Assembly: GCA_964482725.1 (NCBI GenBank)
Contig: CAYZYT010000005.1
Location: forward strand, 24,133 to 88,132
Length of the DNA: 64,000 bases
Direction: 5' to 3'
Source: an uncultured bacterium
GTDB taxonomy: Bacteria > Omnitrophota > Omnitrophia > Omnitrophales > Aquincolibacteriaceae
Shown here: piece after piece, positions 29,901 to 63,669 of the stretch
How the letters are laid out: every line of letters begins with the position of its first letter
Numbering within the stretch: position 1 is the stretch's first letter
Notes under the pieces: generated by a model
What the model was told of the DNA's origin: nothing
The model's database searches: none
What the model saw: the letters and a program-made list of their open reading frames with translations, nothing else
Program-made: the position numbers and the translations under genes

Positions 29901-32900
29901 AGAGCTTTTTTGAGATTGCCTCGGAACAAACATGAACGCTATGTTGCGTCCGTTCATTCCTTCCCCGTTATCCAAAACCGAGATCGAATGACCGTTGGAA
30001 CGGATCAAAACATCTTTGCCCCGCGCCGCTTCGCGGGAATATCCGCTCGGCCCCGCGGGAACGATCTCGCGTTTGCTTTTAAACCCGTTCACTTCATCGG
30101 GTTTGTTATTGCCATACTGGGTCTGGATCGTCATTCCGGGGACATAGCAAAAGACCCGGTGGATCTCGTTCATCAGCTTTGCCTGAGCCTCTTCCGATAT
30201 CTTCTCGCCGGTCGTGACTCGGACGAGCGTCCCCTTTTTGAGATCGACTCCCGTCTCTCGCGTCGCCATATCCGCACGGATCTTCCGGACCTGGATATAA
30301 CTCTGTCCCTTCGTATCTTGCAAAATAGTCAGTTTGTAAACATTTCCACTTTCTTGGGCCGTGTAAACATCCACGCGATCGCGCCCCGTCCCTTTGAGCC
30401 ATGCGAGGATCTGCTTCACCCCTTTGCCGAATTGGCCCAGGCCGGCGCCCAATGCGTCCAGACTGTTAGCCACCGCTTCGATCAGACCCTGGGTCGGAGC
30501 ATTAGGATTTTGACCATCGATCGCTTTATCCTGGAACCGGGGATCCTCGTAGGTTCCGTTCAGGATCGTATCCAGATCGGCTGCCGTTTGCCCCCGATCA
30601 AGGAGCGCCTCAAGGATCCTGTCATAATCTTCTTTATCGCGGTCCTCCGGCTTCTCAGCGCGGCTGGCGGTAATACCAAAGTGAGCCAGGAGATCCTGCT
30701 TTTCGCTTGGCGTGAAATTCTTCTCGGAGAGACGCGTCATCGCTGCAACATAGTGATCCATATCCGGGCCGTTAAATCCTTCCCGGTCGTTGCGATAGTC
30801 CGTGGCCGCTTGCCTTGTCTTCACTTCCTTAGACGCCGGCCGTCCCTTTTCACTTCGAGCAAGAGTCCGATCCGAAACCCAATTCCAAAACTGACCCCAG
30901 TCGGGCATCGTAATGGATCTCACCTCGGCACGAACGAGGGGGGCTTCCCCCAATCCCTGGCCTCGGACATCGGAACGTTGCATCAGCTCCGGAGGATGGA
31001 TCCTATCGCGATTGCGAAGCGCCGATTCGACCGCCTCACGCGGCACCACCGTGCTGTCCAAGGATATCTGTTCACCCGTCGCAACATGCGCACAGACCAG
31101 CTTAACGGCCTTCATAAGATCTTCGACAGCGGACTCGAGGATCGGCCAGGTCACATCCGTAGACGAAGCGTTGCCCTTTGCGATCGCGGAATGAAGTTTT
31201 TCGATCTTGATTTCAAGGTCAGAAAGTTTGCTCTCAAGGAGATACGCGTCGAAAGCCTCTCCGACCGCTTCCTGAACCAACTCGGCCGGAACGCGCCGCG
31301 ACAGGTCCTCCTCATAGCCCTTTTCGTAAGATTTCATTTTGGAAGTTGCAATGATCTGCGTCCCGCCATAGGGCGCGATAAAAAACGGTCCTTTTTTATC
31401 CCCCATGAATGCTTCCAGGAAATTCCACATGGCGACCACATCGGTACGCATGATTTCCAGTTTCTGCAATTCAGTGACTGAATTCTGCTTCGGGGCGGAG
31501 GTTGGGTGCCACCAAGAGGCATCGACCTCACCAAGGAGTGACATCAATCGGGAATTCAACTCGTGTCGCAATCCCCGTGAAACCATGTGCCGGACCTCGT
31601 CAAGCGTGAGCGATCTCCCATTAACTTTACCGTTTACAATCTCCATGTGGGATATCGTCTCATCCGATGTTACCGGGGATATGATCCGGCCCTCAGAACG
31701 GCTTTGAACACCTAAGTCCTTCGCGAGCTTGCCGTGAGCCTCTACCAGAAATTTTTTCGTTAGCATCCATTCTTTAGGCCATGTTTTTGTGGAATCAAAA
31801 CCCGGAAATTTCGCGAACGGAATATGGACATACACCTCCGTCCCCTTATCCAGATACGCGACAAGAAGTCCTTGGGCTCCATTGTTGCGTCTGCCCGTCA
31901 CATAATTCACGACGTTCTCAAAATCGAACACCGCTCCCGCCTTGGTGACCCGGAGCCCTCCCTGGACCGCGGGCACTTGCGACAGGACAACATCGTATGA
32001 ATTCTTGCGCGACGGATCCCCGTTGTTCTGATTAATTTTCCCGTTGATCTCAAAGTTCTTCTTCATAATTGTGTCGTTGCCCATCACCAGCCGCAATTCG
32101 GAGCGAGGGGCAATCCCGGAGCGGGTTTCGGCGCGTCCCTCCGGAATAACTGCGGATGAAACAATCTTGTCACCCCGTTTGAGCGCTGCCTTCAAATACA
32201 AAGGGGTATAGGTTACTTCCGAGAGAACAATTCCTGGATCTTTAACTGTAAAGTCGTTATACGAAGCAGTCTCTGTTCCGAGCATATTTTGAACCGCAAA
32301 ATCCATCGTCGCAGCATCGGCAAAGATCAAATCCCTGCGTCCTGCCGAATCTGGCCGTTTACTGACCCAAGCATTCGGCGCCATCGGTTTTCCATCCTTA
32401 TCGAATGGAGGCTTAAAACCATATTCCGTCACCAGCTTATCAATCACCGCGGGGATCACCATATTCGGATCGGTTCGATTTGCGTTGGGATAGAGCGCGA
32501 AAAATGCATCCAAAAGCTGCCTCATTAACCCGCGAGGCAAAGAGGAATTGATTATGCATCCACGAATCGCCAGATTTCCTTCCGTCGGGATCCCATACAC
32601 CATCAGATCCGGCATCCTGCTTTCGGGCACGCGAACAAGACTCAACCCCTGACTTCCCTTCGGCAAAGTTTTTGAAACATAAAAAGGATGCTTTGTCCCG
32701 TCAGGCAGCCCAAAAACAACCACTTCCAGATTCCCCTCACGGCCGCCTTTAACCGTTCCATAGGGGTTTTTAATATCTAACGCCTCTACCGCAGACGCTG
32801 CTTGTTCCTCAGCTTTCGAACTGGCGCGTTCCTCGGAAACGACGGCCACCGCTGGTTTTTCCATCACCTCAACCGGCACAACTTCCTTCGGTTCCGGCAG

Positions 32901-49341: not shown

Positions 49342-52300
49342 TCACGCTGCGGTGGCAAAAACAAGATTATTGTCGTAACTTCGCTGGAGGGCATTGACCA
49401 AATTCTCGGCAACCCTCCAAAAACCATCCGAATCCTTATTCACCCCCACAAAACGGGCCGTTTCCCCGCCGCCAAGGGCCCAAAGAAGCGCAACCGCCAG
49501 AGACCCGCTTTTCTGACCCTGAGTTTTAAAGAAAGAAACCCTCTTTCTCAGGCGCTGGACCAGTTCCGTGGAGGGAAGGATCTTCTTTGAAAGATGAATA
49601 CTCGGCGCATTCGGCCGGTCAAAGCGGCTCTGAGCTCCCGCCAAGTCTTGACCGGTCCTCGTCACGCGATCAAGCTTCAAAAGAGCCCCGAGCTCTTTAT
49701 CCTGCACCTGCCCGCGCTCATTATAAACCACCACATGAAGCGCTTTATTCGATAGCGCCACGATCAAGTATTCCTGTTTCTGAGCCAGAGAAAGATTCTG
49801 AAAATCTTCCGCATCCACAAATACCGTCGCCGGCTGAACGCCCATACGAACATTCCTCACCATCCGGTCGCCGAGATCCCCCGATATCACCCTCTCAGAA
49901 ACCACCGCTACCCGAGGCTGAAGACTTGCGATAAATGATTCAGACCCCATCTTTTGAGTAGTGGCTTGCAACCTCTTTTGGGCAACATCTTCCCCTTTCG
50001 AATCCCGCACCTCGGAGCGGTCCGCGGGTAATGCCTTGAGATAATTCTCAACGTCACTCAGGATCTTACGATAATCTTCCCGGGCGATCACCTCCGGACG
50101 CTGGGACAGGGCCTCACGGAACTCACGCGTAAGTACGCCTAATTCCCGAGCTTCCTCAGTACTTCCCCTTTCGATCACAAAATCCGCCTGTTCCCGGGTG
50201 GGATCCACAAAAGATTTCTCACCCGCCGCCACATTATCCCAAAGCGCCAGAGTCCGGAATGGATCGCTGAACTTTCTGACCTCAACATCCCGGAAAAGTC
50301 TCCGCATGAACCGGATCTGCCACGGCGTGTCGAGAAAGATCTTCAAAACCGGCACGTCAGGCCCTAAGGCAGACATCACTCTCGGATGCAGTGAATGAAG
50401 TCCTTCCACCCCAATAATGTCGCGACCTCCCAACTGAGAGGTCCTGGCAGGCTCCGCAACGCCAAAAGTACTGGCTGGGATCACCGCCGTACCGTCCCTA
50501 TTCAGCTTTCGGATCGTTTCCGTCATCACGGGAAGATTGTAAGCATCGATATGATCAAAATCAGGCTTGCCGTTTCGAAGAGGACATTCATCCTCCGGCT
50601 TAAAATAGCGATCTTCGGGGACCCATTCAATCTTCCGACCCTGCCCCGCCATCAGACGATTGAACTCATCGAGCATCCATGTTTTTCCGGTAGCGGAAGG
50701 TCCCCCCACAAGCAGAACCGCTCTCGCCGGCAACTGTCGAAGTCTTTCAGAAACAACTCCGCTCAGAACGTCCCAAGTCCCACGGCCCCTTTTCTCGGCC
50801 AGATCTTTCCTGACTTGTGTTTCCATCTGATCGACAATCCCGGAGATGGTCTGGTCGGAGCCGTTTACGATCACGACCGCGTCCGATGGCTGGCGAAGCG
50901 GGGCAAAGGTGCGCCGGCGATCGAGATCATCGCGCTGCTGTATCTTGGCCATAACATCCTCGATCGAAACAGCCTGGGAACCTTCTTTCGCCCGGAACTG
51001 TTCCGCGCGGCGCCTGGCCCGCACTTCGACGGGAGAATCCAAATAAAATTTGGTACCCGTGGCATCCGGGAATACTTCGGTACCCATCTGTCGGCCATCC
51101 ACGACGGCATTATATTTCTCACCGGTCTCGCGGATCTTTTGAAGGACAAATATCTGAACGGCTTTATATTGCGAGACTTCCGCCACCACGCGCGTCACTT
51201 CCTGAGAACGGATCACATCCGTCACGCTCGCGCGGTCCAGAAGAACCTGCAAATCGCTCCCTTTCGCATCGAGAGATACGCTCGTCTTTTCAAGAACCGC
51301 CGTCACGGCAGCTTCGTTCAGCGGATCGATCCCTTCCCGGATCATTTTGTAGGCGATGGCTCTAAAAATGACGCCCGAGTCCACGTACAGGTATCCGAGG
51401 CGCCGCGCCAATTCCAGCCCGGCGGTTCCCTTCCCCGATCCTGACGGCCCGTCTATGGTCACCACAACGGTGCTCAGCGGATTCATTTTAAGAGCGAGCG
51501 TTTTCCCGGCCTCGCGCACGTCCGAACGGTTTTGAGCGCGCACCGCAGGACGGGAGCTAACAAACTTTTGAATCTCGGCCACATCCTTCGCCGGGGCGTT
51601 ACTCACGCCGATATAGACGTCGAACTTCCCGTTCGGAACCTTTCTCATCTGCTCTATTTTCCGGTCGATCCACACACCGGGCACCCACTTGGGGAGTACG
51701 GTCCGCTTCTTGAAAAACTGCCTGTATTCTTGTTTGGCGAGATCTTGAACCGTTTTCGAAAGCAGGAATTCCTTGATTCCCTCCAGGGAAAATCTCACAA
51801 AGACATCTTTATTGTCCTCGATCTCCACCGACGGCATGCTATGGGGGCCGTTTTTCATGAATGCCACGATCGCCCGGTTGACATAGCCATCATCCATTTC
51901 TCCAAAATAGACAATATTACGGATCTTCTTGTACTTCGGGTTCTCGACCAGGACACGCATGTGCGGGTATTTTGCCGAATCCAACCCCCCGATCACTTGT
52001 TGATAAAGTTTGCGGAGGCTTAAAAAGAACTTGAACTCGAAAACCGTATTTTTACTCACGGCGTCCCATTCCTTCCCCGAGGAATCCCGGACAAATTCAT
52101 GGATCGCCCGGATCACGCCCACGTTGATCTTTTTCAGGGACTTACTCCGTTTGATGACCTCCCGGTAAACCCCGGAGATCTCCCCCGCCAGGCCCACCAT
52201 CTTGTCGCGAGGATTTCTCGGCCCCAGCATCGCCTCGACCATATCCGCGACCGACTCGAAGACAGCGGCATGAACCACCTTCGCCCCAGGACCGTTGAAG

Positions 52301-55300
52301 GCAAGCAGCTCACGGATCTTTTTTTCTAATGCCGCGAAGGAGAACTTCCATTCCCGGAATATCGAGATCACGGCCAGAGCGTCATTGAGCTCAGCCGCAC
52401 TGAGCTCGATCTTCGGCCGCTTGGCCGGACGGGCCGCATCGTCCGGTTTGCCGGTCCGATCGTTTCTAAGAACAAACTGACGGAGCTCCCGGCTCAAGGA
52501 CTTCTGACCTTTCAGGTAGGGCTCAAACGACTCCTGGACCTTACGGATCGTGTTGAGAACGGACTGCCTTTGTTCAGGGGCCGCCGTCGCCCCGTCGCCG
52601 AGGATCCTCGCCCCGTCTCTCCGGTAGAACCATCCCAGAAAATCCACCAAAAAATATCCGGGAAGTATATCGATCTCTGCGTCCGTCAAGCCTTGTTTGC
52701 CCGCGGTCCTCTGATAAACCGACAAGGCCCGGAGGAGATACTGCTCCAAATGATCCGTCACATAACCCTGCCGTGGATGCCCTGTCCGGAAAACAACCGA
52801 TGTAAAATCTTCCATTCTGTGACCGAATCGGACATCTTCCCAATCGGTAATTGCGCGTATCCTCCCGGCAGCATCAAAAAAGCAATTGGCGATATTCATA
52901 TCGGAGTTAATAGGCTTTTTCGGAATTTTCTTCGAGAGCGCCCAAACCCCGGGGAAAACATCATCCAAAACCGAGAGGATCGTCCGCGCCTCATCCGGAG
53001 CATAGGCTTGAAGAATACGCTCGCGTCCGTTCGTCCGGCTTTCCTCCATTTGCTCATAATTCCGGCTGCGGGTCCACCGGCCAAGCCCCGCCCAACGTTC
53101 CTCGGACACGTCCAGGGTGGCTGCATGGCTCGAGGCAAGCCATCGAACCACTTCATCGAGCATGGGGGGGGAAGCCTCTTCCCGGTATACATTTTTCAAT
53201 CCCTCGATCCAATTCTCGACCACAAAATATTCTTTGAGATGCGTCGACTGATTAGAAATGCTGAAAATGAGATTAGCGGGTTCACTCATTCCAAAACGAA
53301 AAAGCGCCGGAATAGGGATCCCCTTACGCATATTCCGGTGGATGATATCCGCGATAAACAGGCTCTCCCGTTCTTCGTTCGCCGAACTCAACCGGGAAAG
53401 CTTCTTCAGACAAAATAGCCCCTGTTCCGTTTTAAGGATCGGGATATCTCTTCCGTCATGCCTCTTGAACCGAACGGATTTTAGTGCACCAAGCCCGTAT
53501 TCCGTGAACAGCCGGGCGACATCCTCGTCCGTCCACCCCGCGAAGGCCTCCCTCGCCCTGGGAATTCCAAGAAGCGCGGACGGACTCACCTCCGTCTTGT
53601 CCCCCGGACCTCCACGCATCTCGGAGCGAACCACAAGCGAGTCCCGAGTAGTACTTGAATCAACAGAATTCAAGTGCATCTCGGAGCGAGCCTCACGCGA
53701 GTCCCGAGAAGTCTTTGGCGCAACAGGCGTCAAAGGCATCTCGGAGCGAGCAACGGTGATGAAAATTGCGGCGGTGCGCAGGTAGCGGCCTTGTGAGGAA
53801 GGTAAGGCATAGTCACCATTCGCCCATATCTTTGCATTGCCTCCATGGTCAAGAAGCATCGCTTGACTAAGGCCATATTTCGAGGCTAATGCCGCGCTTT
53901 CAACCAACGTGGAACCCTTACGACCGGATTTCCCCGAGATCCCAAGAACCACAAGTTCCCCGCCGGGAGTCAAGCCCATAAGGGTCCGCGGATATATCCC
54001 CGGTTTGAAAAATATTTTTATCTTCCCTTCCTCGAATTTGAACTGCCCTCGCTCCGTAATTTCACCGTCATTTTCGAGATACCCGCTATCCTTCAACGCC
54101 TTTCGGAGAACGGCTTCCGGAACCGCAACCTCCGTGGTCACTCGATCCGTTCCCTCTTTGAAGCTGAGAGCAACGGTCAGATCCATCCGCACCGGACTTT
54201 TCCAGGCGTTCTGGGCCAACGCATAACCGTTCCGGGACATTTGAGAAACATCAAAATAGATTTCTTCCTTGGAAGCCAACTTCCCCGTTGATGAATCGGG
54301 AAGGTCTCTGGCCAGGATTTTGGGTAAGGTATAAACATGCCGCAGATCTTGAAATTGGGGAATGATCGATTCGATGTCTTCCCGCGGATGACCTCTTCCG
54401 TCCAGTAAGAACTGTCCGAAGGTCGCGTAGTCGATATCTTTTTGAATCTCCCCCCCATTCGCGAAAGCATGGATCGTTCCGTTATTTCCGGCCCGGTAAG
54501 AAACATCCTCCATCAAAAACGTCCCGTTCTTCCGGAGGATCAACGAAGAATACGGATGAGCCCGGATATCCTCGCCGACCGGATAAAAGAGCTTCCCGTG
54601 TGCGAAGGTCACGAATCCTTGATTGGCGAATAAACTCGAATTGTCCACGGCAGCCACCACGGTCTGAGACGGATGGCTTGCTTCAAAACGCCGGATCATC
54701 GCGTCATCCGTTTCGATCTTTTCATGGACTGCGGCATTATCGGTTATCAAAGAACCATCGGCCTCGCGAAAAAAAGCGGTTTCCGTGTTCCGGTCAATGC
54801 CGAATCTTCCCTGAAGTTCCTCCTGGATGGCCACATGAACGCCCCTGCCTGAGGATGGCGAAATTCGAAAGGAAACCACTTCCGAAGACCCCGCCTGAAA
54901 TTGAACCGTCTCTTTTGCGACGGGGAGATACCTCACCTCGGAGCGCCGGCTCGAAGCAGTTAACGCCGTTTTTACTTCTGAGCTCAGAGACTTTTCTCCG
55001 TTAAAGTACGGCGCAAATTGCTTTTGAATTTCCTTGATCGCCCGGAGGATCATCGTCCTCTGGTTCGGGGTCGCTTCTCTTCCTTGCCCCGTCACTCCCT
55101 TCAGATCTTTCACATAAAACCAGCCCAGAAAATCCACGAGAAAGAACCCGGGAAGGCTGTCGATCTCTTCATCCGTCAGCCGCCGGTCTCCCGCGGCCTC
55201 CTGGTAGGCTTGCAGGATTTGGATCAGATCCCGCTCCAGATGTCCGACCACATAACCTTGGCGAGGTCGTCCGGTGCGAAAAAGGATCGAGGTGAAATCT

Positions 55301-58300
55301 TCGATCCGGTAACCCAACCTCGAAGCTTCCCAATCCGTGATCTCGCGGATCTTTCCGTCAGCGTCAAAAAAACAGTTCGCGAAATTAAAATCGGAGCTGA
55401 TGGGCTTGAGCGGAAGTTTCCGGAGCAACGAGGAAACCTTGGGAAGGGCCTGGTCCAAGACGGACAATATCGTCTCGCTATCTTCTTCCGAATAAAATCG
55501 TTTGATCTGCTCCCGGTCCTCGACGCGGCCCCGCTCCATATCCCGGAGCTGCCATTCACGGGTCCACCGCTCCAGCCCCTTCCAATCCGAATCGGTCACA
55601 TCCTCCGTCGCGGCGTGGATCCGATACAGCCATCGAGCGGCCTCTTGCAACATTTCGGGCGTCGCCTCTTCGCGATGGACGCTTGGGTATTCCGTGATCC
55701 ATCTTTCAACCATAAAGTATTCTTGGGTGTGCAACTCGGTGTCCGTGATCCTGAAGAATAAATTTTCGCGCTTTTCCTCTCCAAGACGATAAAGCGCCGG
55801 AATGGGGGTTCCCTTCTGTTTATTCCGATGAACCGTATCCGCGATAAAAAGCATCTGCCTTTCCCTGTCGATCGGATCGAAAGTCGTGATCTTTTTGAGG
55901 CCAAAGAACCCACGAGTCGTTTCAAGAATGGGAATACTTTTATCATTATGCGCTCTCAATTGAACCGCCTTTAGCTCACCGAGCCCGTATTCTTTAAAAA
56001 GCCTCGCGATGTCCTCATCCGCCCATCCCTGGAAGGCTTCCCTCGCCCCGGGAATTCCAAGAAGCACGGACTGACTCACTTCCGTCTTGTCCCCCGGACT
56101 TTTGGCGGCAGCCTCGCGCAGCGGGTATTCATTCATAGAAAGGTTGTGATGGGCGAAAATATTCATCGAATGGACTAGCTGTAATTTCTCTGCGCGTATC
56201 CTTCCAAAAGTATCCTCCCGATGCCTTTTCACCCATTCAAGAAGCTGCGCTCTTTCGTCACGCGTCAATTCCCTGATAGGAGAATAAAGCGTGATCACTC
56301 GCCGTTCCGGCGTTTTTCCGTCAAAAAGGATCGTCTCGGCCTGTATCCGGCCGTCCTCGGGATCCACCGTGACTCCCTGAACCCAAATATCAAAAGGTTC
56401 CCTTGCCTTGGCCATTTGTCCGGTTTTCTCCTGAGCATCTTGGATCTTTTCATCTGAGAAAGGTTGCTTCTGTAGGTGGAATGTCTCCAAAGTAAGGTGG
56501 TAGGCCTCGCGCGGAAAAATAAAGAATTTCTGGGCGAAGGGTTGTTTTGAAAATTCATCGGTAAGTCGGATCAACCCGCGTACGGTCTCATGACCTTCTT
56601 CGGGGTACACAGCAGCGGACAAACTGTAAAGAACCGCTGGGACACCTTCCCGGTTGGCGACACGCTCCCAGAGATTGATCTTCAGCCCCGGAACTTTTCT
56701 GAATTCAACGTATCTGGAATAGGACTCTTCCGTATAAAGTCGTCCCGCGGCTATCGCCTGCTCGGCCTTCAGGAAAGACGGCTCAAAAACAGTCCGCCGC
56801 GCCTCATCCAGGATCGTTTGTTCTTCCGGTGTCCTTACCTCGGAGCGGACTATCGGGTCGGATGGATCGGGCCTCGCATCATCATAAAGGGAACGCACAT
56901 CGGCCCAAAATTCCTTGCCGTCCCATTTGAACGGCATTCCGTAAATAACGAACCGCTGATCCTTCGTCAGTGCCGGCGGCATCTGTGCCTTGACCGCTGC
57001 CAGATCACAAATGTCGGGGATCTGATCTATGGCCGCTTCGATCTTTTTGTTGATGACGTCGGCCGCATACCAAAATTCGACAGGGTATTTTCTCAGGCGG
57101 AGATTACTGTTAAAGACCGCTTCCCCGCCTGGCGCAAGCAGTGAGATCTGGCCCAGGAGCCGCAACCATTTAGCCCATCGCTTGTAGGCATCATCCCCCT
57201 TAGCAAGTCGCGTCGAAACCATCATCAGCGAATTCAGGATATCGATCGAATCGCGCCACTGTCCGCGAAGCTTCTCTTCTTCCGCCCCAAAAATCGCCCC
57301 GATAGTCTTATTAAGATCTGAAACCTCTTCCGGGGTCAGGTCCTGATCCGAATTCATGGAGGATTTCGCCAGCTTTTCAAACCGGTACTGGTCATAATTC
57401 CGGAGAGACCGGTCCCGCGCTTCCGAATCGAGCCACGTCACCACCGTCGCGAGCCTTGCCGGGTAATACACCATACTGTCCGGAAGCACACTCGCCGCAT
57501 CCGCGATATTGTGCAGCAACAACTTCTCAAAACCTTTTTCATCAAGCCCTTCCTTGAATTTTGTGTAACGCAACTCTCCGAGATACAGCGATCCTGCACT
57601 CATGTGGCGTCGGATAAGCGAAGAAACAGCCCGAGCCCTCTGCGAAGACATGAGAAGATCGCTCTGGAAGAAAGATTCTGCATAATCCGCCCCGCTTGCC
57701 TCATGCCCCACATCCGCGTTGCCAAAGATGTATCCAAAATCATGGGCTTTGATCTCAAGCCACATTTCCGTTTTTTCATCCAGCGTTAATGCATCATAAA
57801 CGGACTTCACCCGTCCAAGATCTTTCCGGTACCCATCCTTATCAGGTGAGGTGGTTCCGTGCTTTAAGCGGTTGAGAAAGTAATCAAAATTGCCGGTGGT
57901 AAGGGCGCGAAAGAAACGTTCAACACGTATCATGTGCCGTGCTTTCTCGGGATTAGCTTCCAACGGTTTCTCTTCATTTCCCTCTTTGATCTTCCGGAAC
58001 GGTTCGCTGGCCGAAAGATCGAATTTCTCAACCTCGAGATCCGGAAGGTAAGTATTAACGATCTTCATCGTCGCATCGCTGACAGGCTCCGGGCCCTTAA
58101 GCCCTGAAAGGGCCTCAAGGATCTCATCGATAGTGATCTTGACATAATCCTTCTGGCCCGCCGACTTCGTCTGAGAGCGTTCCGCTTCCGCCTCGGCAAG
58201 ATAGCCTTCTAACATTTTTGCTACATCCCGCGCCTCGGAGCGAACGGACAGAAGACCTGCGCCTTGCGCCTCCCGAGAAACATTTTCCACTTCAGCCGCA

Positions 58301-61300
58301 TCCGATTCCGGAGAAACCATGTCGTTATAAACATCAGAAAGCACTACGCTGGCTTGCTGAGCGGTTATGGGCAAAAGCAGAGCAGGCGATTTTTCAGTCA
58401 CTGAATGTTCTTGAACCGCTTTTAAAAAAGAAGAACCGATAGCTTTCAGATTGGCCGAAAAAGCAAAACGCTCTTCGGCTGATTTTCTGGCCATCGCCCC
58501 CATTTGATCCCTCTCCGCCTCATCACCCGCAAGTTGACCGATCCTCCGCGCCAGATCCCGGTAATTTCCACGAGGAATCACAAAACCGGTGACACCCTCG
58601 ACCAAAGTTTCAGGCAGCCCTCCTCCGTCAGAAACGATGGCAGGAACACCGCTGGCCTGCGCCTCCACCGGGACGAGACCGAAGGGTTCAGCTCCCAACG
58701 TGGGATAGACCACAAGATACGATGCGTCATACCAGCGCCTCATTTGTTCGACTGACTGGCCTCCCACAAAAAGGACTTCCACCTTGAGGCTCTTCGCAAG
58801 ATCCTGCAGCTTGGCAAGATCATTTTGCAATGGATTGTGCTCGGGCCCCAAAACAACAAAAGACAATTGAGAGCTCCGTGCGGGATCCTGTCTCAATAGT
58901 TCTGCGGCAGCACGGAGGGTAACCTCCTGGCCCTTGCGGGGCTCGATACGGCTCGGGTGAAGGATGATTTTCTTGCCCGAAAGGCCATACTGCTTACGAA
59001 GCGCCTCAACAGACATACGATCTTCGGCATTCCGTTCTTGAAGAAAATAGCTCATGTCAGAAATAGGATATAGGCGCTCTACTTTTTCACTGCCAAGGTC
59101 TGAAAAAATCTTCTGAAAGGCATTACTGCATGTCACCGCCGCATCCGAGTTCCTTACCAAATAGGCAACCCCTTCCGTAATGGCGCCGCCATGGAAAAAG
59201 TAATGAGAAGGGATCCGTAACTGGTGAGAAAATGAAAGGGCGGTTTTCAAAAGGATAAACTGCGCTTTTGAGCTATTCAGAGCGATCAGATCGATCGGCA
59301 TCCGTCTCTGGATCTCAGCGAGAAGCCTTTCCAAATGGATGCTTACTTCCCCGTCCGTGAGAGGAATGTTGTCAGGACTCCTTTTAGGAATCCCATGGAG
59401 CACAAGGCGGTTCCCGCTTTTGGGGGCCTCAAACAATGTTTCCGATGGCTCTGTCCCCGCACCCAGGTACAGAAGCTCGAACGTAAATCCTTTTTCTGTT
59501 CTCAAGAGCGTCTTGATCAAATTCTGCTGGTAAGTCTGTATCCCACCTATTTTAAGCTGCTGAGGACTGATGGAAAGTACATGCCGCACGCCCTTCGCAC
59601 CAAGCTCACCTCCGGGCAAAGACGGAACGGTCCCCTCGTTCAATTCACGGAAGAAACGCGCCCAGTTTTCCTTCAAAAGCGCCTCACGTTGCTTTTCCGA
59701 CAGGACCGATTTATCAGAAACAGTTGGTGACCCAGCTGCCAATAGTCGCATCTCGGAGCGAGCTTCAAGCGAGTCCCGAGTAGTACTTGAATCAACAGGA
59801 TTCAAGGGCATCTCGGAGCGAGCCTCACGCGAGTCCCGAGAAGTACTTGAATCAACAGAATTCAAATGCATCTCGGAGCGGACAGAAGAAGTAGCAGTCG
59901 GTGCCGTTGCAGGTTCCGCTAAAACCTCTGTCGGAAAATTCGTGATTTTATAAAGAGCGTAGGGCTTCCCTTCAAAGAGAAAGGATTCAACGAGAGCGCC
60001 CTGCAGCGGGTACGCTTTGGGCTCATCTTTGCGGGATTTCGGCCAGGGCTTATAATTAAAACGTTTCACGGCAGGGGGCACTTTCTCAGCCTGCAGTGCA
60101 ATAAAGAAACCTTTTTTTGCTTTAAACAAATAAGATTCCTCATTGCGAGCCCAGGCAATCGGCCGAAAGCTCTCCAATCCGACCAGCAGGGGTTCTCCCT
60201 GAACATGCAAGCGTGCAAGCCTGCTACCTTTCAGAAGGGCTGCGATGTGTTCTCCATCCGAACCCGTCAGGAGGTTGCCAAGGACCCCCCAAAGAGAGAC
60301 TTGAAATATCATAAGCGAAACACCCGGGAAAAAACCCAGATACCACAAAATGAAGGATACGCAAGCAACGCTAAGTTCCATCAAAGGACCCGATACAGCA
60401 ATCCAAATACGTTGGATGGGGAGAAGTCTAAAATCGTCAGGCGAGTACGTGGTAACAAATCCCGGAAAAAGGCTATAAACAATATCCTGGACAGTCGCTT
60501 GCCCGTCAGCCTTCCCTCTTTTTTGAATTATCTTCGCCGAGATAAAATGACCTGCCTCATGCGCCGCTACTGCGCTAATGGCAATCAAGGCAAAAACAAA
60601 TCCCAAAAAAGGCATGTCGATCACGAATGCGCCATAAATACTCTTATAAGATTCAATCCGTTTTTTGACCGCACGACTTGGCTGTCTCGAAAGAAAAGGG
60701 CTGTACTCGGAAATGAACAATTCGCGGATAACAAAAGCTAGACTGAATGCGGTGAACATCACTATTCCGGGCATGCGATCGAGAACAAAAAAAGCCCCTG
60801 TCACGGAAAGAACAGCACGGAGAAGGTTGAGTCTCCGGTTAAAGGTTGCCACCTTTTTCCAGTCGAACACGCCGTGTCGCTTAAGATAAGATTCGTACTG
60901 ACTGACAAAAAAATGGATCGCATCCGAAAATATTTTATTACTGAAAACCACAAGACCCCAGGCAAGCCCGAATAGTACCGTCACAAAACCAAAACCGATA
61001 ACCCTTTGCCCAAACTTCATCGGGTTAACAAAATAGTCACGCAGAGCTTTTCCGATCGGCACGCGCTTTGCAGCCTGCGTGACGCTCTCCCCCCCGGAGG
61101 CATTTCGAACCACCGGCTGGGCTTGAGAAGGCAATGAAAATACTGGATCGGGTACCGGAAGGCGCCGGATCGAGAAATTGTCCGCAAGGTGGACCAGCTC
61201 CGCTTTCTCCGCACGGAACAAGCCCATCACCCGATCGCGATTCCGGATAACCCAGCTTTGCACCTGGCTTGTCTCATCCGCCGTCAAGGGCTCGAGGGGC

Positions 61301-63669
61301 GTCATCAGTGTCATGGCCTGAATGCGGGGCGCCCAGCGCCACGAAGAAAATGCGTGAACGCGGATCCTGCCGGTTTCTTCATCGATCGCGACCCCTGCCA
61401 CGTCAATATCAAAGGGCTGCTTATCCTTGAGAAATGCCTCCGTCTCTTCCCGTCCCGTTGTCACTTCCGAATCGCTAAAAGGCGTTTTCCGGGAATTACG
61501 GACGGGCCATAAGGTGAGATGGATCGCCTCTGAAGGAGTCCTGAAAAATTTCGAGGCCGCGAAAGGCAACTCTCTGTAGAAATCATCCTGGAGGCGGGTC
61601 ATCTCCCTGCTGACAGCTCCAGCATGATCCGGAGCAACCAGCAAGGACAAGCTGTAGAAAGGCGCCAGTGTCCCGTCGGATGCAAAAAACCGTTCGCGGG
61701 CACTCACCCCCCACTGGCCCGGAATTGAAAGCGCTTCTTCCGTATAAGAAAAACCAAGACCTTTTTCGAACGCTTCATCAAAAGCCTTCCCCCTCAGTTC
61801 CGAACGAGGTTTTACGATCCCGCCTTCTACAGACTCCGGCTGAACTTGATCGCCTGGGTTAAGGCCGGCAAGCCGGCGCTCGATCAGTTGCGGGTCTGAA
61901 ATATTTCCCATGGCCTCGACGGATGAAGTGATGGCGCGAAGCGTCGATTGAGCGGAAGCATCCTCGCCCGCAACGGCGGCCGAATAGAAAATGCTGGGAG
62001 GTTTATTGGCATGGGCCGCGAGAAACGGCGTTTCGAAGGTCCGATGGCCTTCCGTCATGAGCTGCTTATAGAAATCTTGGTGTCTTTTGTTCGCGGAAGT
62101 AATCCTGGGAGAAATGACAACATAGGAGATCCCTTTCTCCCGCAACATTTCTTTAATACTGTTGGCGTGGAAGCCGCCGTACACCAGCACTGCTGGTGCG
62201 GGACTCGGGGAACGGCTAACGGTGAACGATTGAGACTTTTCGTTCTGCGCTATGCTTTCCACGTCCCCCTTCGTAATTTCGTTTCCCGTTCCCCGTTCCA
62301 CGTTTCCCGCTTCTATGTATTTATCCATCGCTCCCGAGATCGTGCCATCCCGCTGCAGGGCAACTTCGTAGAACCGGACCGCCTCCTGGATATGGCGCTC
62401 CCATTCTCTGGACAAAACCAGGGGTCGGCGCGTCAGCGACACAATAAAATCTGCCAATCTCCGTGTGTCCAACCGACGCAGCGTCGTTTGGACCGCTTCA
62501 TATTCCGCCTGGGTCAGTTCGATCCGGTTAAGCCTCTTGAGAAGGCCCAGCCCCTGATAATAAGTGAATATTTCCCGATCTCTTTCATTTTGAAGTAAGG
62601 CCACCGAGACATTCTTTTCCAACCGCGTGATCTCTTCAAAGACCCCTTTGAAATCCAGGGCATTCAGCTGCTGGTTCAATTTCGGGTCATGAGTCGTCTC
62701 GGCCATGAGAAGCATAGAAATGGCAGGATATTCTTTAGCGAAATCCCAAGCAGAGCGCGATTCAGGGCTTTTCAAATAAAACGCCTGAAGCTCTTTTAAA
62801 TAATTAAGCAGGGGCAGCTTCCCTTCCGAAAAAAGCTTCCTCGCTTTCATCCAGGTCTTTAGGTCTTTGGGAAAGTATTGATTCGCAAGCGTGGTGATCT
62901 GGCCCCAAAGTTCCGCGAGATCTTCTTCGATGTCTTTGCGGCTCTGGGAGGAATCCTGATAGCATTTGATGTTCTCACCGTAGAGCTTGAGATCCTCAAC
63001 GCCGATCAACTCAAAATCCTTCGGGATGACCTGAGACTTGAGACTTGAGACTAGAGACTTGCCGTCAAAACTTTGGTCTTTTTTACTAGAGTCTCCGGTC
63101 TCTGGTCTCTGGTCTAATCGGCTTCGCCGATTAATATGCGCATACTCCGCGCCGCCGATGCGGAGCTGGTCCATCATAAAATACGAGACCTTTTCCTTGG
63201 TCGCGGGATCTTTGATAAATCCAAAGAACTTGTCGGTGGGAACCGGGCCTTCGTAGCCTTCTTCAAAGACGGTCCGGACGCCGTCCCGCTCCACCAGAAG
63301 CCGGATGATCTTGGCAATATTCACCTGCGCTTCGAGCGAGTCGTGGGCGTCTTGGATGAGCACGATCCTTTGATCGTGCCGGGAAATGGCTAACGATGAA
63401 CGGTTAACGATTTCGTTATTACGTTCCCCATTCCCCGTTCCACGTTCCCCGCGGTAGACTTCGTCTACCGAACCAAGTTCTTTCGGAATAGAAAAGGAAG
63501 CGGGAGCAACGGGTTCGATAACTTTGGAAGATTGACCGGCAATGGCCTGGGGGGCATAGCGGGAGACATCAAAAAGGACAAAAGCCAGGATGACAAAAAT
63601 CGCCGTAGCCTTTCGAAATAAAAGGCCCCTTTGACAGGTTTTACAAGACGATTCCGCATCGTAAAACAT
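49342..63669 (-). CDS. giant 4775-aa membrane multidomain protein fusing phosphoesterase, kinase, glycosyltransferase and glycosidase domains behind a conserved N-terminal module
   Basis: Single uninterrupted ORF in the track. N-terminal hydrophobic anchor or signal. Domain landmarks were located by back-translating motifs to the DNA; see the sub-features below. Confidence 0.85.
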   Translation of the reverse strand: MFYDAESSCKTCQRGLLFRKATAIFVILAFVLFDVSRYAPQAIAGQSSKVIEPVAPASFSIPKELGSVDEVYRGERGTGNGERNNEIVNRSSLAISRHDQRIVLIQDAHDSLEAQVNIAKIIRLLVERDGVRTVFEEGYEGPVPTDKFFGFIKDPATKEKVSYFMMDQLRIGGAEYAHINRRSRLDQRPETGDSSKKDQSFDGKSLVSSLKSQVIPKDFELIGVEDLKLYGENIKCYQDSSQSRKDIEEDLAELWGQITTLANQYFPKDLKTWMKARKLFSEGKLPLLNYLKELQAFYLKSPESRSAWDFAKEYPAISMLLMAETTHDPKLNQQLNALDFKGVFEEITRLEKNVSVALLQNERDREIFTYYQGLGLLKRLNRIELTQAEYEAVQTTLRRLDTRRLADFIVSLTRRPLVLSREWERHIQEAVRFYEVALQRDGTISGAMDKYIEAGNVERGTGNEITKGDVESIAQNEKSQSFTVSRSPSPAPAVLVYGGFHANSIKEMLREKGISYVVISPRITSANKRHQDFYKQLMTEGHRTFETPFLAAHANKPPSIFYSAAVAGEDASAQSTLRAITSSVEAMGNISDPQLIERRLAGLNPGDQVQPESVEGGIVKPRSELRGKAFDEAFEKGLGFSYTEEALSIPGQWGVSARERFFASDGTLAPFYSLSLLVAPDHAGAVSREMTRLQDDFYRELPFAASKFFRTPSEAIHLTLWPVRNSRKTPFSDSEVTTGREETEAFLKDKQPFDIDVAGVAIDEETGRIRVHAFSSWRWAPRIQAMTLMTPLEPLTADETSQVQSWVIRNRDRVMGLFRAEKAELVHLADNFSIRRLPVPDPVFSLPSQAQPVVRNASGGESVTQAAKRVPIGKALRDYFVNPMKFGQRVIGFGFVTVLFGLAWGLVVFSNKIFSDAIHFFVSQYESYLKRHGVFDWKKVATFNRRLNLLRAVLSVTGAFFVLDRMPGIVMFTAFSLAFVIRELFISEYSPFLSRQPSRAVKKRIESYKSIYGAFVIDMPFLGFVFALIAISAVAAHEAGHFISAKIIQKRGKADGQATVQDIVYSLFPGFVTTYSPDDFRLLPIQRIWIAVSGPLMELSVACVSFILWYLGFFPGVSLMIFQVSLWGVLGNLLTGSDGEHIAALLKGSRLARLHVQGEPLLVGLESFRPIAWARNEESYLFKAKKGFFIALQAEKVPPAVKRFNYKPWPKSRKDEPKAYPLQGALVESFLFEGKPYALYKITNFPTEVLAEPATAPTATSSVRSEMHLNSVDSSTSRDSREARSEMPLNPVDSSTTRDSLEARSEMRLLAAGSPTVSDKSVLSEKQREALLKENWARFFRELNEGTVPSLPGGELGAKGVRHVLSISPQQLKIGGIQTYQQNLIKTLLRTEKGFTFELLYLGAGTEPSETLFEAPKSGNRLVLHGIPKRSPDNIPLTDGEVSIHLERLLAEIQRRMPIDLIALNSSKAQFILLKTALSFSHQLRIPSHYFFHGGAITEGVAYLVRNSDAAVTCSNAFQKIFSDLGSEKVERLYPISDMSYFLQERNAEDRMSVEALRKQYGLSGKKIILHPSRIEPRKGQEVTLRAAAELLRQDPARSSQLSFVVLGPEHNPLQNDLAKLQDLAKSLKVEVLFVGGQSVEQMRRWYDASYLVVYPTLGAEPFGLVPVEAQASGVPAIVSDGGGLPETLVEGVTGFVIPRGNYRDLARRIGQLAGDEAERDQMGAMARKSAEERFAFSANLKAIGSSFLKAVQEHSVTEKSPALLLPITAQQASVVLSDVYNDMVSPESDAAEVENVSREAQGAGLLSVRSEARDVAKMLEGYLAEAEAERSQTKSAGQKDYVKITIDEILEALSGLKGPEPVSDATMKIVNTYLPDLEVEKFDLSASEPFRKIKEGNEEKPLEANPEKARHMIRVERFFRALTTGNFDYFLNRLKHGTTSPDKDGYRKDLGRVKSVYDALTLDEKTEMWLEIKAHDFGYIFGNADVGHEASGADYAESFFQSDLLMSSQRARAVSSLIRRHMSAGSLYLGELRYTKFKEGLDEKGFEKLLLHNIADAASVLPDSMVYYPARLATVVTWLDSEARDRSLRNYDQYRFEKLAKSSMNSDQDLTPEEVSDLNKTIGAIFGAEEEKLRGQWRDSIDILNSLMMVSTRLAKGDDAYKRWAKWLRLLGQISLLAPGGEAVFNSNLRLRKYPVEFWYAADVINKKIEAAIDQIPDICDLAAVKAQMPPALTKDQRFVIYGMPFKWDGKEFWADVRSLYDDARPDPSDPIVRSEVRTPEEQTILDEARRTVFEPSFLKAEQAIAAGRLYTEESYSRYVEFRKVPGLKINLWERVANREGVPAVLYSLSAAVYPEEGHETVRGLIRLTDEFSKQPFAQKFFIFPREAYHLTLETFHLQKQPFSDEKIQDAQEKTGQMAKAREPFDIWVQGVTVDPEDGRIQAETILFDGKTPERRVITLYSPIRELTRDERAQLLEWVKRHREDTFGRIRAEKLQLVHSMNIFAHHNLSMNEYPLREAAAKSPGDKTEVSQSVLLGIPGAREAFQGWADEDIARLFKEYGLGELKAVQLRAHNDKSIPILETTRGFFGLKKITTFDPIDRERQMLFIADTVHRNKQKGTPIPALYRLGEEKRENLFFRITDTELHTQEYFMVERWITEYPSVHREEATPEMLQEAARWLYRIHAATEDVTDSDWKGLERWTREWQLRDMERGRVEDREQIKRFYSEEDSETILSVLDQALPKVSSLLRKLPLKPISSDFNFANCFFDADGKIREITDWEASRLGYRIEDFTSILFRTGRPRQGYVVGHLERDLIQILQAYQEAAGDRRLTDEEIDSLPGFFLVDFLGWFYVKDLKGVTGQGREATPNQRTMILRAIKEIQKQFAPYFNGEKSLSSEVKTALTASSRRSEVRYLPVAKETVQFQAGSSEVVSFRISPSSGRGVHVAIQEELQGRFGIDRNTETAFFREADGSLITDNAAVHEKIETDDAMIRRFEASHPSQTVVAAVDNSSLFANQGFVTFAHGKLFYPVGEDIRAHPYSSLILRKNGTFLMEDVSYRAGNNGTIHAFANGGEIQKDIDYATFGQFLLDGRGHPREDIESIIPQFQDLRHVYTLPKILARDLPDSSTGKLASKEEIYFDVSQMSRNGYALAQNAWKSPVRMDLTVALSFKEGTDRVTTEVAVPEAVLRKALKDSGYLENDGEITERGQFKFEEGKIKIFFKPGIYPRTLMGLTPGGELVVLGISGKSGRKGSTLVESAALASKYGLSQAMLLDHGGNAKIWANGDYALPSSQGRYLRTAAIFITVARSEMPLTPVAPKTSRDSREARSEMHLNSVDSSTTRDSLVVRSEMRGGPGDKTEVSPSALLGIPRAREAFAGWTDEDVARLFTEYGLGALKSVRFKRHDGRDIPILKTEQGLFCLKKLSRLSSANEERESLFIADIIHRNMRKGIPIPALFRFGMSEPANLIFSISNQSTHLKEYFVVENWIEGLKNVYREEASPPMLDEVVRWLASSHAATLDVSEERWAGLGRWTRSRNYEQMEESRTNGRERILQAYAPDEARTILSVLDDVFPGVWALSKKIPKKPINSDMNIANCFFDAAGRIRAITDWEDVRFGHRMEDFTSVVFRTGHPRQGYVTDHLEQYLLRALSVYQRTAGKQGLTDAEIDILPGYFLVDFLGWFYRRDGARILGDGATAAPEQRQSVLNTIRKVQESFEPYLKGQKSLSRELRQFVLRNDRTGKPDDAARPAKRPKIELSAAELNDALAVISIFREWKFSFAALEKKIRELLAFNGPGAKVVHAAVFESVADMVEAMLGPRNPRDKMVGLAGEISGVYREVIKRSKSLKKINVGVIRAIHEFVRDSSGKEWDAVSKNTVFEFKFFLSLRKLYQQVIGGLDSAKYPHMRVLVENPKYKKIRNIVYFGEMDDGYVNRAIVAFMKNGPHSMPSVEIEDNKDVFVRFSLEGIKEFLLSKTVQDLAKQEYRQFFKKRTVLPKWVPGVWIDRKIEQMRKVPNGKFDVYIGVSNAPAKDVAEIQKFVSSRPAVRAQNRSDVREAGKTLALKMNPLSTVVVTIDGPSGSGKGTAGLELARRLGYLYVDSGVIFRAIAYKMIREGIDPLNEAAVTAVLEKTSVSLDAKGSDLQVLLDRASVTDVIRSQEVTRVVAEVSQYKAVQIFVLQKIRETGEKYNAVVDGRQMGTEVFPDATGTKFYLDSPVEVRARRRAEQFRAKEGSQAVSIEDVMAKIQQRDDLDRRRTFAPLRQPSDAVVIVNGSDQTISGIVDQMETQVRKDLAEKRGRGTWDVLSGVVSERLRQLPARAVLLVGGPSATGKTWMLDEFNRLMAGQGRKIEWVPEDRYFKPEDECPLRNGKPDFDHIDAYNLPVMTETIRKLNRDGTAVIPASTFGVAEPARTSQLGGRDIIGVEGLHSLHPRVMSALGPDVPVLKIFLDTPWQIRFMRRLFRDVEVRKFSDPFRTLALWDNVAAGEKSFVDPTREQADFVIERGSTEEARELGVLTREFREALSQRPEVIAREDYRKILSDVENYLKALPADRSEVRDSKGEDVAQKRLQATTQKMGSESFIASLQPRVAVVSERVISGDLGDRMVRNVRMGVQPATVFVDAEDFQNLSLAQKQEYLIVALSNKALHVVVYNERGQVQDKELGALLKLDRVTRTGQDLAGAQSRFDRPNAPSIHLSKKILPSTELVQRLRKRVSFFKTQGQKSGSLAVALLWALGGGETARFVGVNKDSDGFWRVAENLVNALQRSYDNNLVFATAA
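50175..50745 (-). other. giant protein 2: uridine-kinase / phosphoribulokinase-family domain
   Basis: VLLVGGPSATGKTW P-loop at 50690..50730; IGVEGLHSL..., FLDTPWQIRFMRRLFRDVEVR and ADFVIERG (50175..50192) line up with Udk blocks. Confidence 0.6.
50830..51480 (-). other. giant protein 2: cytidylate kinase domain
   Basis: VVVTIDGPSGSGKGTAG at 51425..51470, then YLDSG, VVDGRQ and the lid region. A complete Cmk-like unit. Confidence 0.65.
52450..53590 (-). other. giant protein 2: APH/CotS-like kinase-fold module, copy 2 (paralogous to copy 1)
   Basis: SDMNIANCFFDAAGRIRAITDWEDVRFG at 52800..52925, ending ILPGYFLVDFLGWFY. Roughly 50% identical to copy 1 over about 360 aa. Confidence 0.5.
53600..53770. 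repeat. 63-bp tandem coding repeats (2.5 copies; 21-aa unit RSEMxLNxVDSSTxRDS(R/L)EA), cluster 2
   Basis: CATCTCGGAGCGAGCCTCACGCGAGTCCCGAGAAGT... repeated. More than 90% identical to cluster 1 at 59745..59890 over about 110 nt. Confidence 0.75.
53780..54850 (-). other. giant protein 2: phosphodiester-glycosidase-like domain
   Basis: RTLMGLTPGGELVVLGISGKSGRKGSTLVESAALASKYGLSQAMLLDHGGNAKIW at 53815..53990, the characteristic C-terminal block of this family. Confidence 0.5.
55000..56090 (-). other. giant protein 2: APH/CotS-like kinase-fold module, copy 1
   Basis: SDFNFANCFFDADGKIREITDWEASRLG (Brenner-type D..N, then the DWE/DFE motif) at about 55290..55400. Ends with LPGFFLVDFLGWFY. Confidence 0.5.
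56130..56810 (-). other. giant protein 2: 2H phosphoesterase domain, copy 2 (both HxT motifs present: GHETV and YHLTL)
   Basis: GHETVRGL at 56572..56600 and AYHLTLETF at 56465..56525. Confidence 0.55.
57480..57790 (-). other. giant protein 2: HD-type phosphohydrolase-like domain
   Basis: LEIKAHDFGYIFGNADVGHE ... LLLHNIADAASV gives an H..HD..H..D arrangement. Confidence 0.35.
58400..59600 (-). other. giant protein 2: GT4-family glycosyltransferase domain
   Basis: EPFGLVPVEAQASGVPAIVSDGGGLPE (58621..58700) with an upstream Rossmann half starting at VRHVLSIS (59570..59620). Confidence 0.6.
59745..59890. repeat. 63-bp tandem coding repeats, cluster 1
   Basis: Same unit as cluster 2, in direct orientation and about 6 kb away within the same ORF. 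Confidence 0.75.
60250..61020 (-). other. giant protein 2: multi-pass membrane segment with HEAGH (M50/site-2-protease-like)
   Basis: Helices from MKFGQRVIGFGFVTVLFGL (60981..61020), through AISAVAAHEAGHFISAK (60530..60585), to VLGNLLTGSDG (60250..60300). Confidence 0.45.
61290..61800 (-). other. giant protein 2: 2H phosphoesterase-like domain, copy 1 (first HxT motif degenerate, second intact as HLTL)
   Basis: EAIHLTLWPV at 61495..61525; the upstream position reads DHAG instead of HxT/S. Confidence 0.4.
62000..63669 (-). other. giant protein 2: N-terminal module shared with giant protein 1
   Basis: IVLIQDAH at 63335..63375 and LVYGGFHANSIKEMLREKGISYVVISPRI at 62105..62200. A 19-nt stretch GCGTCTTGGATGAGCACGA is identical in both giant genes (63343..63361 and 34761..34779). 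Confidence 0.5.

Follow-up and report, generated by a model that had tools for sequence, protein, structure and literature searches.

The window analyzed here is a 64,000-nucleotide stretch of an uncultured Omnitrophota genome (assembly GCA_964482725.1, contig CAYZYT010000005.1, positions 24,133 to 88,132). It contains two giant open reading frames (ORFs), both on the minus strand, which we term giant 1 (g1) and giant 2 (g2). In g2, a signal peptide, a conserved N-terminal domain and a conserved C-terminal domain that terminates in -AA are combined with a membrane-embedded cassette, a GT4 domain, two APH-like kinases, NAGPA, a cytidylate kinase and a PRK/uridine-kinase-like module. An initial annotation of the window had placed an HExxH motif of each giant within a multi-pass membrane segment in mid-protein. 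This placement is loose, as the membrane blocks lie at 19-24% of the length of g2 and at 67-71% of that of g1. Here, we present sequence comparisons indicating that amino acids (aa) ~860-1262 of g2 probably constitute a self-contained cassette of a divergent M50 (site-2-protease, S2P) intramembrane zinc metalloprotease, to which the HETAH motif of g1 is unrelated. We assign this reading a probability of about 0.72. The coordinates of the features are collected in Table 1.

Table 1. Features of the two giants in the window, with positions counted from its first nucleotide.
Feature	Window position	Strand	Description
Giant 2 ORF	49342..63669	-	4775 aa; exact protein present, nameless, in NCBI-derived collections
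g2 RSELR linker motif, aa 622-626	61792..61806	-	separates the N-terminal domain from the soluble module preceding the M50 block
g2 M50 cassette, aa 860-1262	59884..61092	-	three accessory helices, three-helix M50 core and beta-rich tail domain
g2 hydrophobic helix H1, aa 887-912	60934..61011	-	from the Kyte-Doolittle profile
g2 helices H2 (aa 946-963) and H3 (aa 967-986)	60712..60834	-	3-residue turn D-R-M between them
g2 helix H4, aa 1012-1043	60541..60636	-	HEAGH, aa 1037-1041 (60547-60561), at its C-terminal end
g2 stretch DIVYSLFPGFVTTY, aa ~1061-1076	60442..60489	-	aligned with the 'LPIGG' region of MjS2P
g2 helix H5, aa 1086-1111	60337..60414	-	G1094-P1095 = M50 'GP' motif (the GPLMEL segment)
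g2 helix H6, aa 1113-1135, then D-G	60253..60333	-	N1132-LLTGS-D1138-G1139
g2 beta-rich tail domain, aa ~1165-1250	59920..60177	-	ends in 'YALYKITNFP'; kept in 6/6 modules
g2 RSEMH linker motif, aa 1264-1268	59866..59880	-	closes the M50 cassette downstream
Giant 1 ORF	17925..35114	-	5729 aa
g1 membrane block, aa ~3816-4072	22899..23669	-	four hydrophobic helices
g1 HETAH, aa 3962-3966	23217..23231	-	in the polar loop, context NLLAHETAHLLE
g1 RSEIR linker motif, aa 4037-4041	22992..23006	-	separates the HExxH loop domain from the last helix of the block

The Kyte-Doolittle profile of g2 resolved a polytopic block of about 253 aa (aa ~887-1139; window ~60253-61011) with six hydrophobic segments, and the HEAGH sequence falls within the fourth of these. 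The initial annotation, which described an HExxH motif inside a polytopic block of roughly 250 aa, was thus accurate for g2. Helices H2 and H3, which are separated only by a short turn, could form a hairpin or one kinked helix. At the end of H4, zinc is presumably coordinated by H1037 and H1041, with E1038 as the presumed catalytic base. The H, E, G and H residues of this HExGH motif are invariant across the six modules that we compared (g2 and five relatives, described below), and they align with HELGH of MjS2P and SpoIVFB. The DIVYSLFPGFVTTY stretch that follows H4 may, as judged from its alignment, correspond to the membrane-reentrant beta hairpin or edge strand: its 'SLFPGFVTTY' pairs with 'LLPIGGVAM' of MjS2P and is moderately hydrophobic, while the AlphaFold2 (AF2) model is of too low quality to reveal strands there.

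The remaining M50 signatures lie in the last two helices of the block. The GPLMEL segment that had been singled out downstream of HExxH carries, at G1094-P1095, a GP motif whose G is invariant and whose P is kept in five of the six modules; it aligns with GGPLFN of aq_1964 and AGPLVS of MjS2P. Similarly, the second zinc ligand anticipated in a downstream helix was located at D1138, which we presume to be the third zinc-coordinating residue. D1138 belongs to an N..DG motif, a shortened, Pro-less form of NxxPxxxxDG in which the Asn and Asp residues are spaced by 6 rather than 8. The motif aligns with 'NLIPAFPMDGG' of MjS2P and 'NLLPIWPLDGG' of SpoIVFB, S-D1138-G falling on MDGG and LDGG. The D-G pair is invariant among g2 and its two database relatives (P0002 and P0003), and one of the more distant modules (L059b) has a near-canonical NMLPWGSVDAG. 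In RseP, an Asn residue in transmembrane helix 3 (TM3) is critical, and a TM1-TM3 core together with an MRE beta sheet defines RseP and MjS2P (PMC9401612). N1132 of g2 is the counterpart of this TM3 Asn. The tail domain that ends the cassette gave no PDZ or CBS match. In the AF2 model of the g2 block, it alone reaches a confidence score (predicted local distance difference test, pLDDT) of 70-80, and all of it is predicted as strands.

We found that Pfam Peptidase_M50 (PF02163) was the sole family match within the g2 block, with an E-value of 2.5e-4 (20.9 bits) for the whole protein and of 1.2e-5 and 8.6e-6 (25.3-25.7 bits) for the block. An exhaustive HMMER search of 1.84 billion representative proteins returned only P0002 and P0003 as non-self relatives of the block. 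Further M50 modules came from 80 related genomic loci (L001-L080, fetched with 10-kb flanks): one in L050 and two copies in L059 (L059a and L059b). The relatives share 21-29% identity with the g2 module, and identity to MjS2P and SpoIVFB is 19-20%. Each of the six modules matched PF02163 individually (best E 8.8e-10). When a profile of the six modules was compared with PDB sequences, it matched aq_1964 (9j82; E 6.1e-7) and MjS2P (3b4r; E 2.5e-4), with the alignment to MjS2P running from HExxH through DG, as well as an RseP-type protein (7w6y; E 1.3e-3) and, at E 0.14, SpoIVFB (8vjl). All six modules retain HExGH, and five of them retain the GP and Asp positions. Three of the four M50 sequence features that we looked for are present in g2: HExxH in a helix, a GP helix and, in variant form, the DG motif. 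By contrast with the profile, the g2 block alone had no relevant match among PDB sequences. Word-index homologue searches with the block and with the 3-sequence and 6-sequence alignments returned zero relatives, as did a metagenome scan with the g2 alignment.

Together, these results indicate that the M50 match of g2 is beyond chance, because it combines a PF02163 E-value of 1.2e-5 with three motifs that persist at 21-29% identity. The M50/site-2-protease-like arrangement proposed in the initial annotation thus finds support in the family and profile searches as well as in the three catalytic motifs. The conservation of the zinc ligands and the catalytic Glu in modules this divergent further suggests that the g2 protease is probably active. 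As judged from their sequences, the L059 modules bridge the g2 block to classical M50 proteins. They are arranged in tandem (L059:11837-12679 and L059:13337-14179), directly after the N-terminal domain of the L059 giant, a distant member of the family.

The g2 cassette can be compared with M50 proteases of known structure, namely MjS2P (3B4R), Escherichia coli RseP (7W6X), the Aquifex RseP homologue aq_1964 (9J82) and Bacillus subtilis SpoIVFB (8VJL). Like these, it has an HExxH helix, a GP helix and an Asn..Asp-Gly motif; the stretch after the HExxH helix is a candidate for their hairpin. The g2 module differs from them in its setting, inside a 4775-aa multi-enzyme chain rather than in a stand-alone protein of 200-700 aa. 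It also lacks PDZ and CBS domains and has instead three extra N-terminal helices and a novel beta-rich tail of ~100 aa; its Asn-Asp spacing is shortened and Pro-less, and its divergence is extreme. The embedding in a chain of 4.8 thousand amino acids (kaa), the accessory helices and the tail domain thus set the g2 module apart from known S2Ps.

In g1, the HExxH motif has a different context. The four hydrophobic helices of the g1 block (aa ~3816-3840, 3864-3886, 3913-3935 and 4043-4072) include a loop of ~105 aa between the third and the fourth, which is polar around HExxH and moderately hydrophobic at aa ~3981-3998. HETAH lies outside every hydrophobic helix, in the polar stretch NKDVVQELRHSGIDEKGYINKRSNLLAHETAHLLETVSAIQKGR, 27 residues past the third helix. 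Downstream, 42 residues after H3966, is the sequence E4008-F-A-D4011 ('GEFAD'), in which E4008 is a candidate acidic ligand. The g1 block gave no M50 match in Pfam even at E <= 10 and no match to PF01435 (M48) or PF05569 (M56). It had zero matches in NCBIfam, and HtpX, Ste24, BepA and BlaR1 were not among its matches to PDB sequences at E <= 10. No relatives of the block were found in the 80 loci, in a metagenome scan or in a viral-contig scan. The possibility that the g1 and g2 blocks are homologues was ruled out by BLAST, which confined the homology of the two giants to the N-terminal ~550 aa (aa ~5-550), and by an hhalign comparison of the g1 block with the g2 family profile, which gave a probability of 0.5%. 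We read the g1 HETAH motif as a polar juxtamembrane helix that lies in a loop connecting membrane helices and has no relation to M50. The earlier claim of a comparable membrane block in g1 holds to the extent that hydrophobic helices surround the motif; the motif itself is in a polar loop, and the block is unrelated to that of g2. Similarly, the intramembrane protease-like core proposed for g1 was not supported, in view of this polar context and the absence of M50, M48 and M56 matches.

The surroundings of HETAH, with a hydrophobic stretch before it and E-F-A-D after it, resemble the presumed pattern of M48/M56-type zincins, although the profile tests did not bear this out. In M48 (HtpX/Ste24) and M56 (BlaR1/MecR1) proteins, HExxH likewise occupies a soluble juxtamembrane domain between helices, preceded by a hydrophobic stretch and followed by an E-x-A-D-like motif. 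Unlike those families, g1 has no Pfam, NCBIfam or PDB match at the thresholds tried, and membership is not supported. We judge the odds to be roughly even between a small zincin-like domain and a chance motif. The AF2 prediction of the g1 block, made from a single sequence, was unusable (pLDDT 41.9). One segment of g1 resembled a GHKL ATPase on inspection but gave no match in a PDB sequence search, and we do not claim it. A second HExxH in g1, HEISH (aa 5018-5022; window 20049-20063), lies in a soluble context with a strand-like 'GFIIVLRDDW..' upstream, which makes it look zincin-like, and has no Pfam match.

Both g1 and g2 belong to a large family of Omnitrophota giants, whose hallmarks are a Sec-type signal peptide, an N-terminal domain of ~550 aa, variable middle modules, R-S-E-[VLMAI]-R linkers and a C-terminal domain. 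The signal-peptide-led N-termini that had been described for g1 and g2 were seen across the family. Searching GTDB species genomes for the conserved N-terminal domain (g2 aa 46-620, window 61810-63534; g1 window ~33315-35000) gave 162 stretches, nearly all from Omnitrophota and often several per genome. Invariant positions of the domain are D107, H109, Q115, E137, R440 and G498-G-F-H501. Its Pfam matches are weak, to ChaN/Tiki (best E 1.9e-5) and to TraB_PrgY_gumN (best E 0.034), each in 3 of 35 members, and it had no match in the PDB. The middle modules of family giants are poorly conserved. For g1, the 80 loci contained relatives only of the N-terminal ~600-800 aa, of the C-terminal ~330 aa and of two separate stretches in the middle (aa ~1500-1999 and aa ~4094-4540), each of the latter in a single locus, and the whole 5729-aa protein had zero matches in Pfam and NCBIfam.

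The linker motif R-S/A-E-[VLMAI]-R is present in 10 copies in g1 and 9 in g2, compared to ~0.4 expected, and lies at module boundaries. Family giants contain RSExR 354 times in 208,593 aa, compared to 27 times in 333,925 aa of other ORFs, an enrichment of ~21-fold; the motif falls at Pfam domain boundaries, and its flanks are rich in A/S/G/P/E. We ruled out a DNA-level repeat since the codons vary, which also indicates that selection acts on the protein sequence of the linker. The motif is a candidate cleavage or recognition site. Linkers of the RSExR type flank the M50 module in g2, P0002, P0003 and L050. The motif is absent from the giants of L042, L059, L077 and L080. A repeated linker of ~45 aa, built from units 'RSEM[HP]L[NT][SP]V..S..SRDS.EA', occurs twice in g2 (aa 1262-1308, window 59746-59886, and aa 3304-3352, window 53614-53760). 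The RSEMH motif at aa 1264-1268 is the first unit of the linker at aa 1262-1308, and the RSEMP variants escaped the motif count. At the other end of the family proteins, 18 of 31 complete relatives terminate in -AA, seven in -SA and one in -HA, while only 13 of 1118 background ORFs terminate in -AA. In g1 (..DQAA, 17928-17933) and g2 (..ATAA, 49345-49350), the last two codons encode this tail, which presumably resembles ssrA-type C-terminal degrons.

The M50 cassette is rare in the family: we found it in 3 of ~70 family giants, including two of 67 sampled giant ORFs, and it is missing from the closest relatives of g2 (L001, L002, L006 and L064). With this sporadic distribution, the cassette cannot be the general processing device of the family, and on the same grounds we rejected the M50 module as a family-wide linker protease. 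In the giants of L025, L054, L079 and L011, 5-12 hydrophobic helices form internal clusters of other kinds, which lack HExxH; thus, non-M50 membrane cassettes also circulate in the family. We conclude that the family modules are interchangeable units of secreted or membrane-associated multi-enzyme giants, linked by RSExR.

Two internal duplications of g2 were also observed. Residues 639-839 (window 61153-61755) resemble residues 2309-2512 (window 56134-56745) at 38% identity (E 1e-33), a pair without a family match, and residues 2524-2900 (window 54970-56100) resemble residues 3354-3730 (window 52480-53610) at 55% identity (E 4e-146), both being APH-like kinase modules. The neighborhood of the two giants consists of housekeeping genes of an anaerobe (PFOR, NrdD, ArgRS, MiaA, HflX and NadE).

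The initial annotation had further suggested that each giant displays enzymatic arrays on both faces of the membrane. The number of hydrophobic helices is even in all six M50 modules, with four in L050, L059a and L059b and six in g2 and P0003. In the 4-helix modules, the distribution of Lys and Arg residues assigns the two flanks to the cytoplasm, together with the HExxH/DG side, which matches known S2Ps. In g2, the paralogous soluble modules at aa 639-839 and aa 2309-2512 sit on either side of the membrane block. Because of the even helix counts, the Lys/Arg pattern of the 4-helix modules and these flanking paralogs, an arrangement with enzymes on both faces is doubtful. What pulls toward a two-faced topology is the signal peptide ahead of the g2 block and the GT4, APH-like kinase, cytidylate kinase and PRK modules behind it, enzymes that depend on ATP or NDP-sugars. 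Hydropathy does not settle whether g2 crosses the membrane 5 or 6 times, as two loops on nominally opposite sides are both rich in Lys and Arg. Implausible predicted localizations have been noted earlier in a preprint on Omnitrophota giants (10.1101/2023.11.21.568195).

Several observations weigh against the assignment of the g2 cassette to M50. On its own, g2 scores 25.3-25.7 bits, narrowly under the curated PF02163 gathering score of 27.2 bits, a threshold passed by way of its relatives and a profile; its NxxPxxxxDG motif is shortened and has lost the Pro; L050 aligns poorly at the DG position, leaving the assignment of its Asp ambiguous; and the orientation of g2 is ambiguous, given the two Lys/Arg-rich loops. 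In addition, the AF2 model of the g2 block, built from 3 sequences, has low confidence (pLDDT 46.7), and a Foldseek search of the PDB with this model found nothing at E <= 1e-3. The sub-threshold score and the degenerate motif would fit a relic without catalytic activity, retained only to anchor the protein in the membrane. We consider this very unlikely, since HExGH is kept in 6/6 modules and GP and Asp in 5/6 despite 21-29% identity, and an anchor would not need these residues. We counted 15 bare HExxH motifs in the 208,593 aa of related giants, or ~0.4 per protein of 5.7 kaa; with such a background, the g1 motif alone is not beyond chance. That HETAH is a chance, non-catalytic HExxH in a membrane-anchoring segment, with g2 holding the only protease-like membrane module of the window, is a possibility that we place slightly below even odds. 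It accords with this background and with family, structure and homologue searches that all ended without a match, while the context speaks for a zincin: the hydrophobic-hydrophobic-Ala-HExxH order, the hydrophobic strand- or helix-like stretch ~27 residues before and the E-x-A-D sequence 42 after would be typical of zincins such as M48/M56, and several other family giants have soluble HExxH modules in zincin-like contexts. The idea behind the initial annotation was that both giants share an M50/M48-like intramembrane core that splits exported from cytoplasmic halves, one of which is released by regulated intramembrane proteolysis. Both giants do have signal-peptide-like N-termini and an internal helix cluster with HExxH nearby. 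Two halves would also suit the nucleotide-dependent C-terminal modules of g2, expected in the cytoplasm, and its N-terminal domain, which is distantly Tiki/ChaN-like; members of that superfamily are often extracytoplasmic. This model is nevertheless very unlikely: the g1 HExxH lies outside the membrane helices, in a block that shares no ancestry with that of g2 and has no M48, M50 or M56 signal; the 4 or 6 helices of the M50 modules predict same-side flanks; paralogous soluble modules of g2 lie on both sides of its block; and most family giants, including those of L001, L002, L006 and L064, lack the cassette.

A further group of explanations treats the giants as polyproteins. If the RSE[VLM]R linkers were cleavage sites, then the g2 piece of aa ~627-1263 could act as an ordinary-sized, stand-alone S2P. 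The abundance of the linker at domain boundaries, its A/S/G/P/E-rich flanks and its family-wide conservation at the protein level with varied codons are consistent with this, and the freed piece of ~640 aa, in which the 6-helix core is joined to a soluble domain and the beta domain, would have the size of a normal S2P. Cleavage of Omnitrophota giants was also proposed earlier, without cleavage points (10.1101/2023.11.21.568195). Nevertheless, the motif might just as well serve in docking, folding or modification, and four giants (L042, L059, L077 and L080) do without it; we regard this reading as unlikely. In it, the linkers would be cut by a protease other than the M50 module, for example by the universal N-terminal Tiki/TraB-like domain. 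The invariant D/H/E/R/H positions of that domain and its weak ChaN/Tiki and TraB Pfam matches point in this direction, although the Tiki-like label comes from 3/35 members with weak E-values and no PDB match. Still less likely, in our estimation, is the combined proposal that the giants are self-processing polyproteins, cut at RSE[VLM]R by the N-terminal Tiki/TraB-like domain or another dedicated enzyme, which frees M50 cassettes. If it were true, then the freed M50 modules could cleave leftover anchors and thereby control which enzyme modules stay membrane-bound, and a giant would effectively be an operon in one polypeptide. Autoprocessing multi-effector polyproteins such as MARTX toxins and viral polyproteins have conserved terminal regions, variable central enzyme modules and short conserved inter-module sites. 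The likeness is one of analogy only, and the modules of the family giants look housekeeping-type rather than toxin-like.

Omnitrophota giants have been described in two preprints, which treat proteins of at least 10 kaa (bioRxiv 10.64898/2026.06.07.730766; 10.1101/2023.11.21.568195). These preprints report C39 and S8 peptidases, SecA-like domains and signal peptidase II (10.64898/2026.06.07.730766; 10.1101/2023.11.21.568195), and cleavage into several products is proposed (10.1101/2023.11.21.568195). As in the 'multi-enzyme metabolic cluster' giants described there, the g2 family comprises long proteins with a signal peptide and transmembrane segments that tile unrelated enzyme domains, peptidases included. 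In term searches of 10.64898/2026.06.07.730766 (with one supplementary file), of 10.1101/2023.11.21.568195 and of a collection of papers, neither an M50 module nor polyprotein processing nor a linker motif was mentioned. In the portions of the two preprints consulted, we saw no description of a shared Tiki-like N-terminal domain or of an -AA C-terminus, terms that were not themselves searched.

Our comparisons lead back to the reading of g2 aa ~860-1262 as a divergent M50 cassette. By analogy with RseP, SpoIVFB and MjS2P, this cassette would cleave a segment that spans the membrane or lies close to it, on the membrane face where the HExxH of H4 meets the Asp of H6. We infer the substrate, which may be an anchor helix or what remains of a signal peptide, in the same giant or in a neighboring one, and likewise the timing of cleavage. 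Processing in a separate step is suggested by the conserved linkers.

Known site-2 proteases are stand-alone proteins with a regulatory role, releasing factors that are tethered to the membrane. An S2P with its catalytic residues kept, carried as a swappable cassette in a multi-enzyme giant of the uncultivated and possibly predatory Omnitrophota, would be unusual. Our analysis also corrects the first reading of this locus: an intramembrane-protease core is indicated in one giant, g2, only, and the two-face picture is not secured. Finally, the g2 cassette bears on the open question of whether Omnitrophota giants function as intact chains or are processed into fragments. Since its boundaries coincide with the conserved RSExR motif, the linker provides concrete candidate cut sites.

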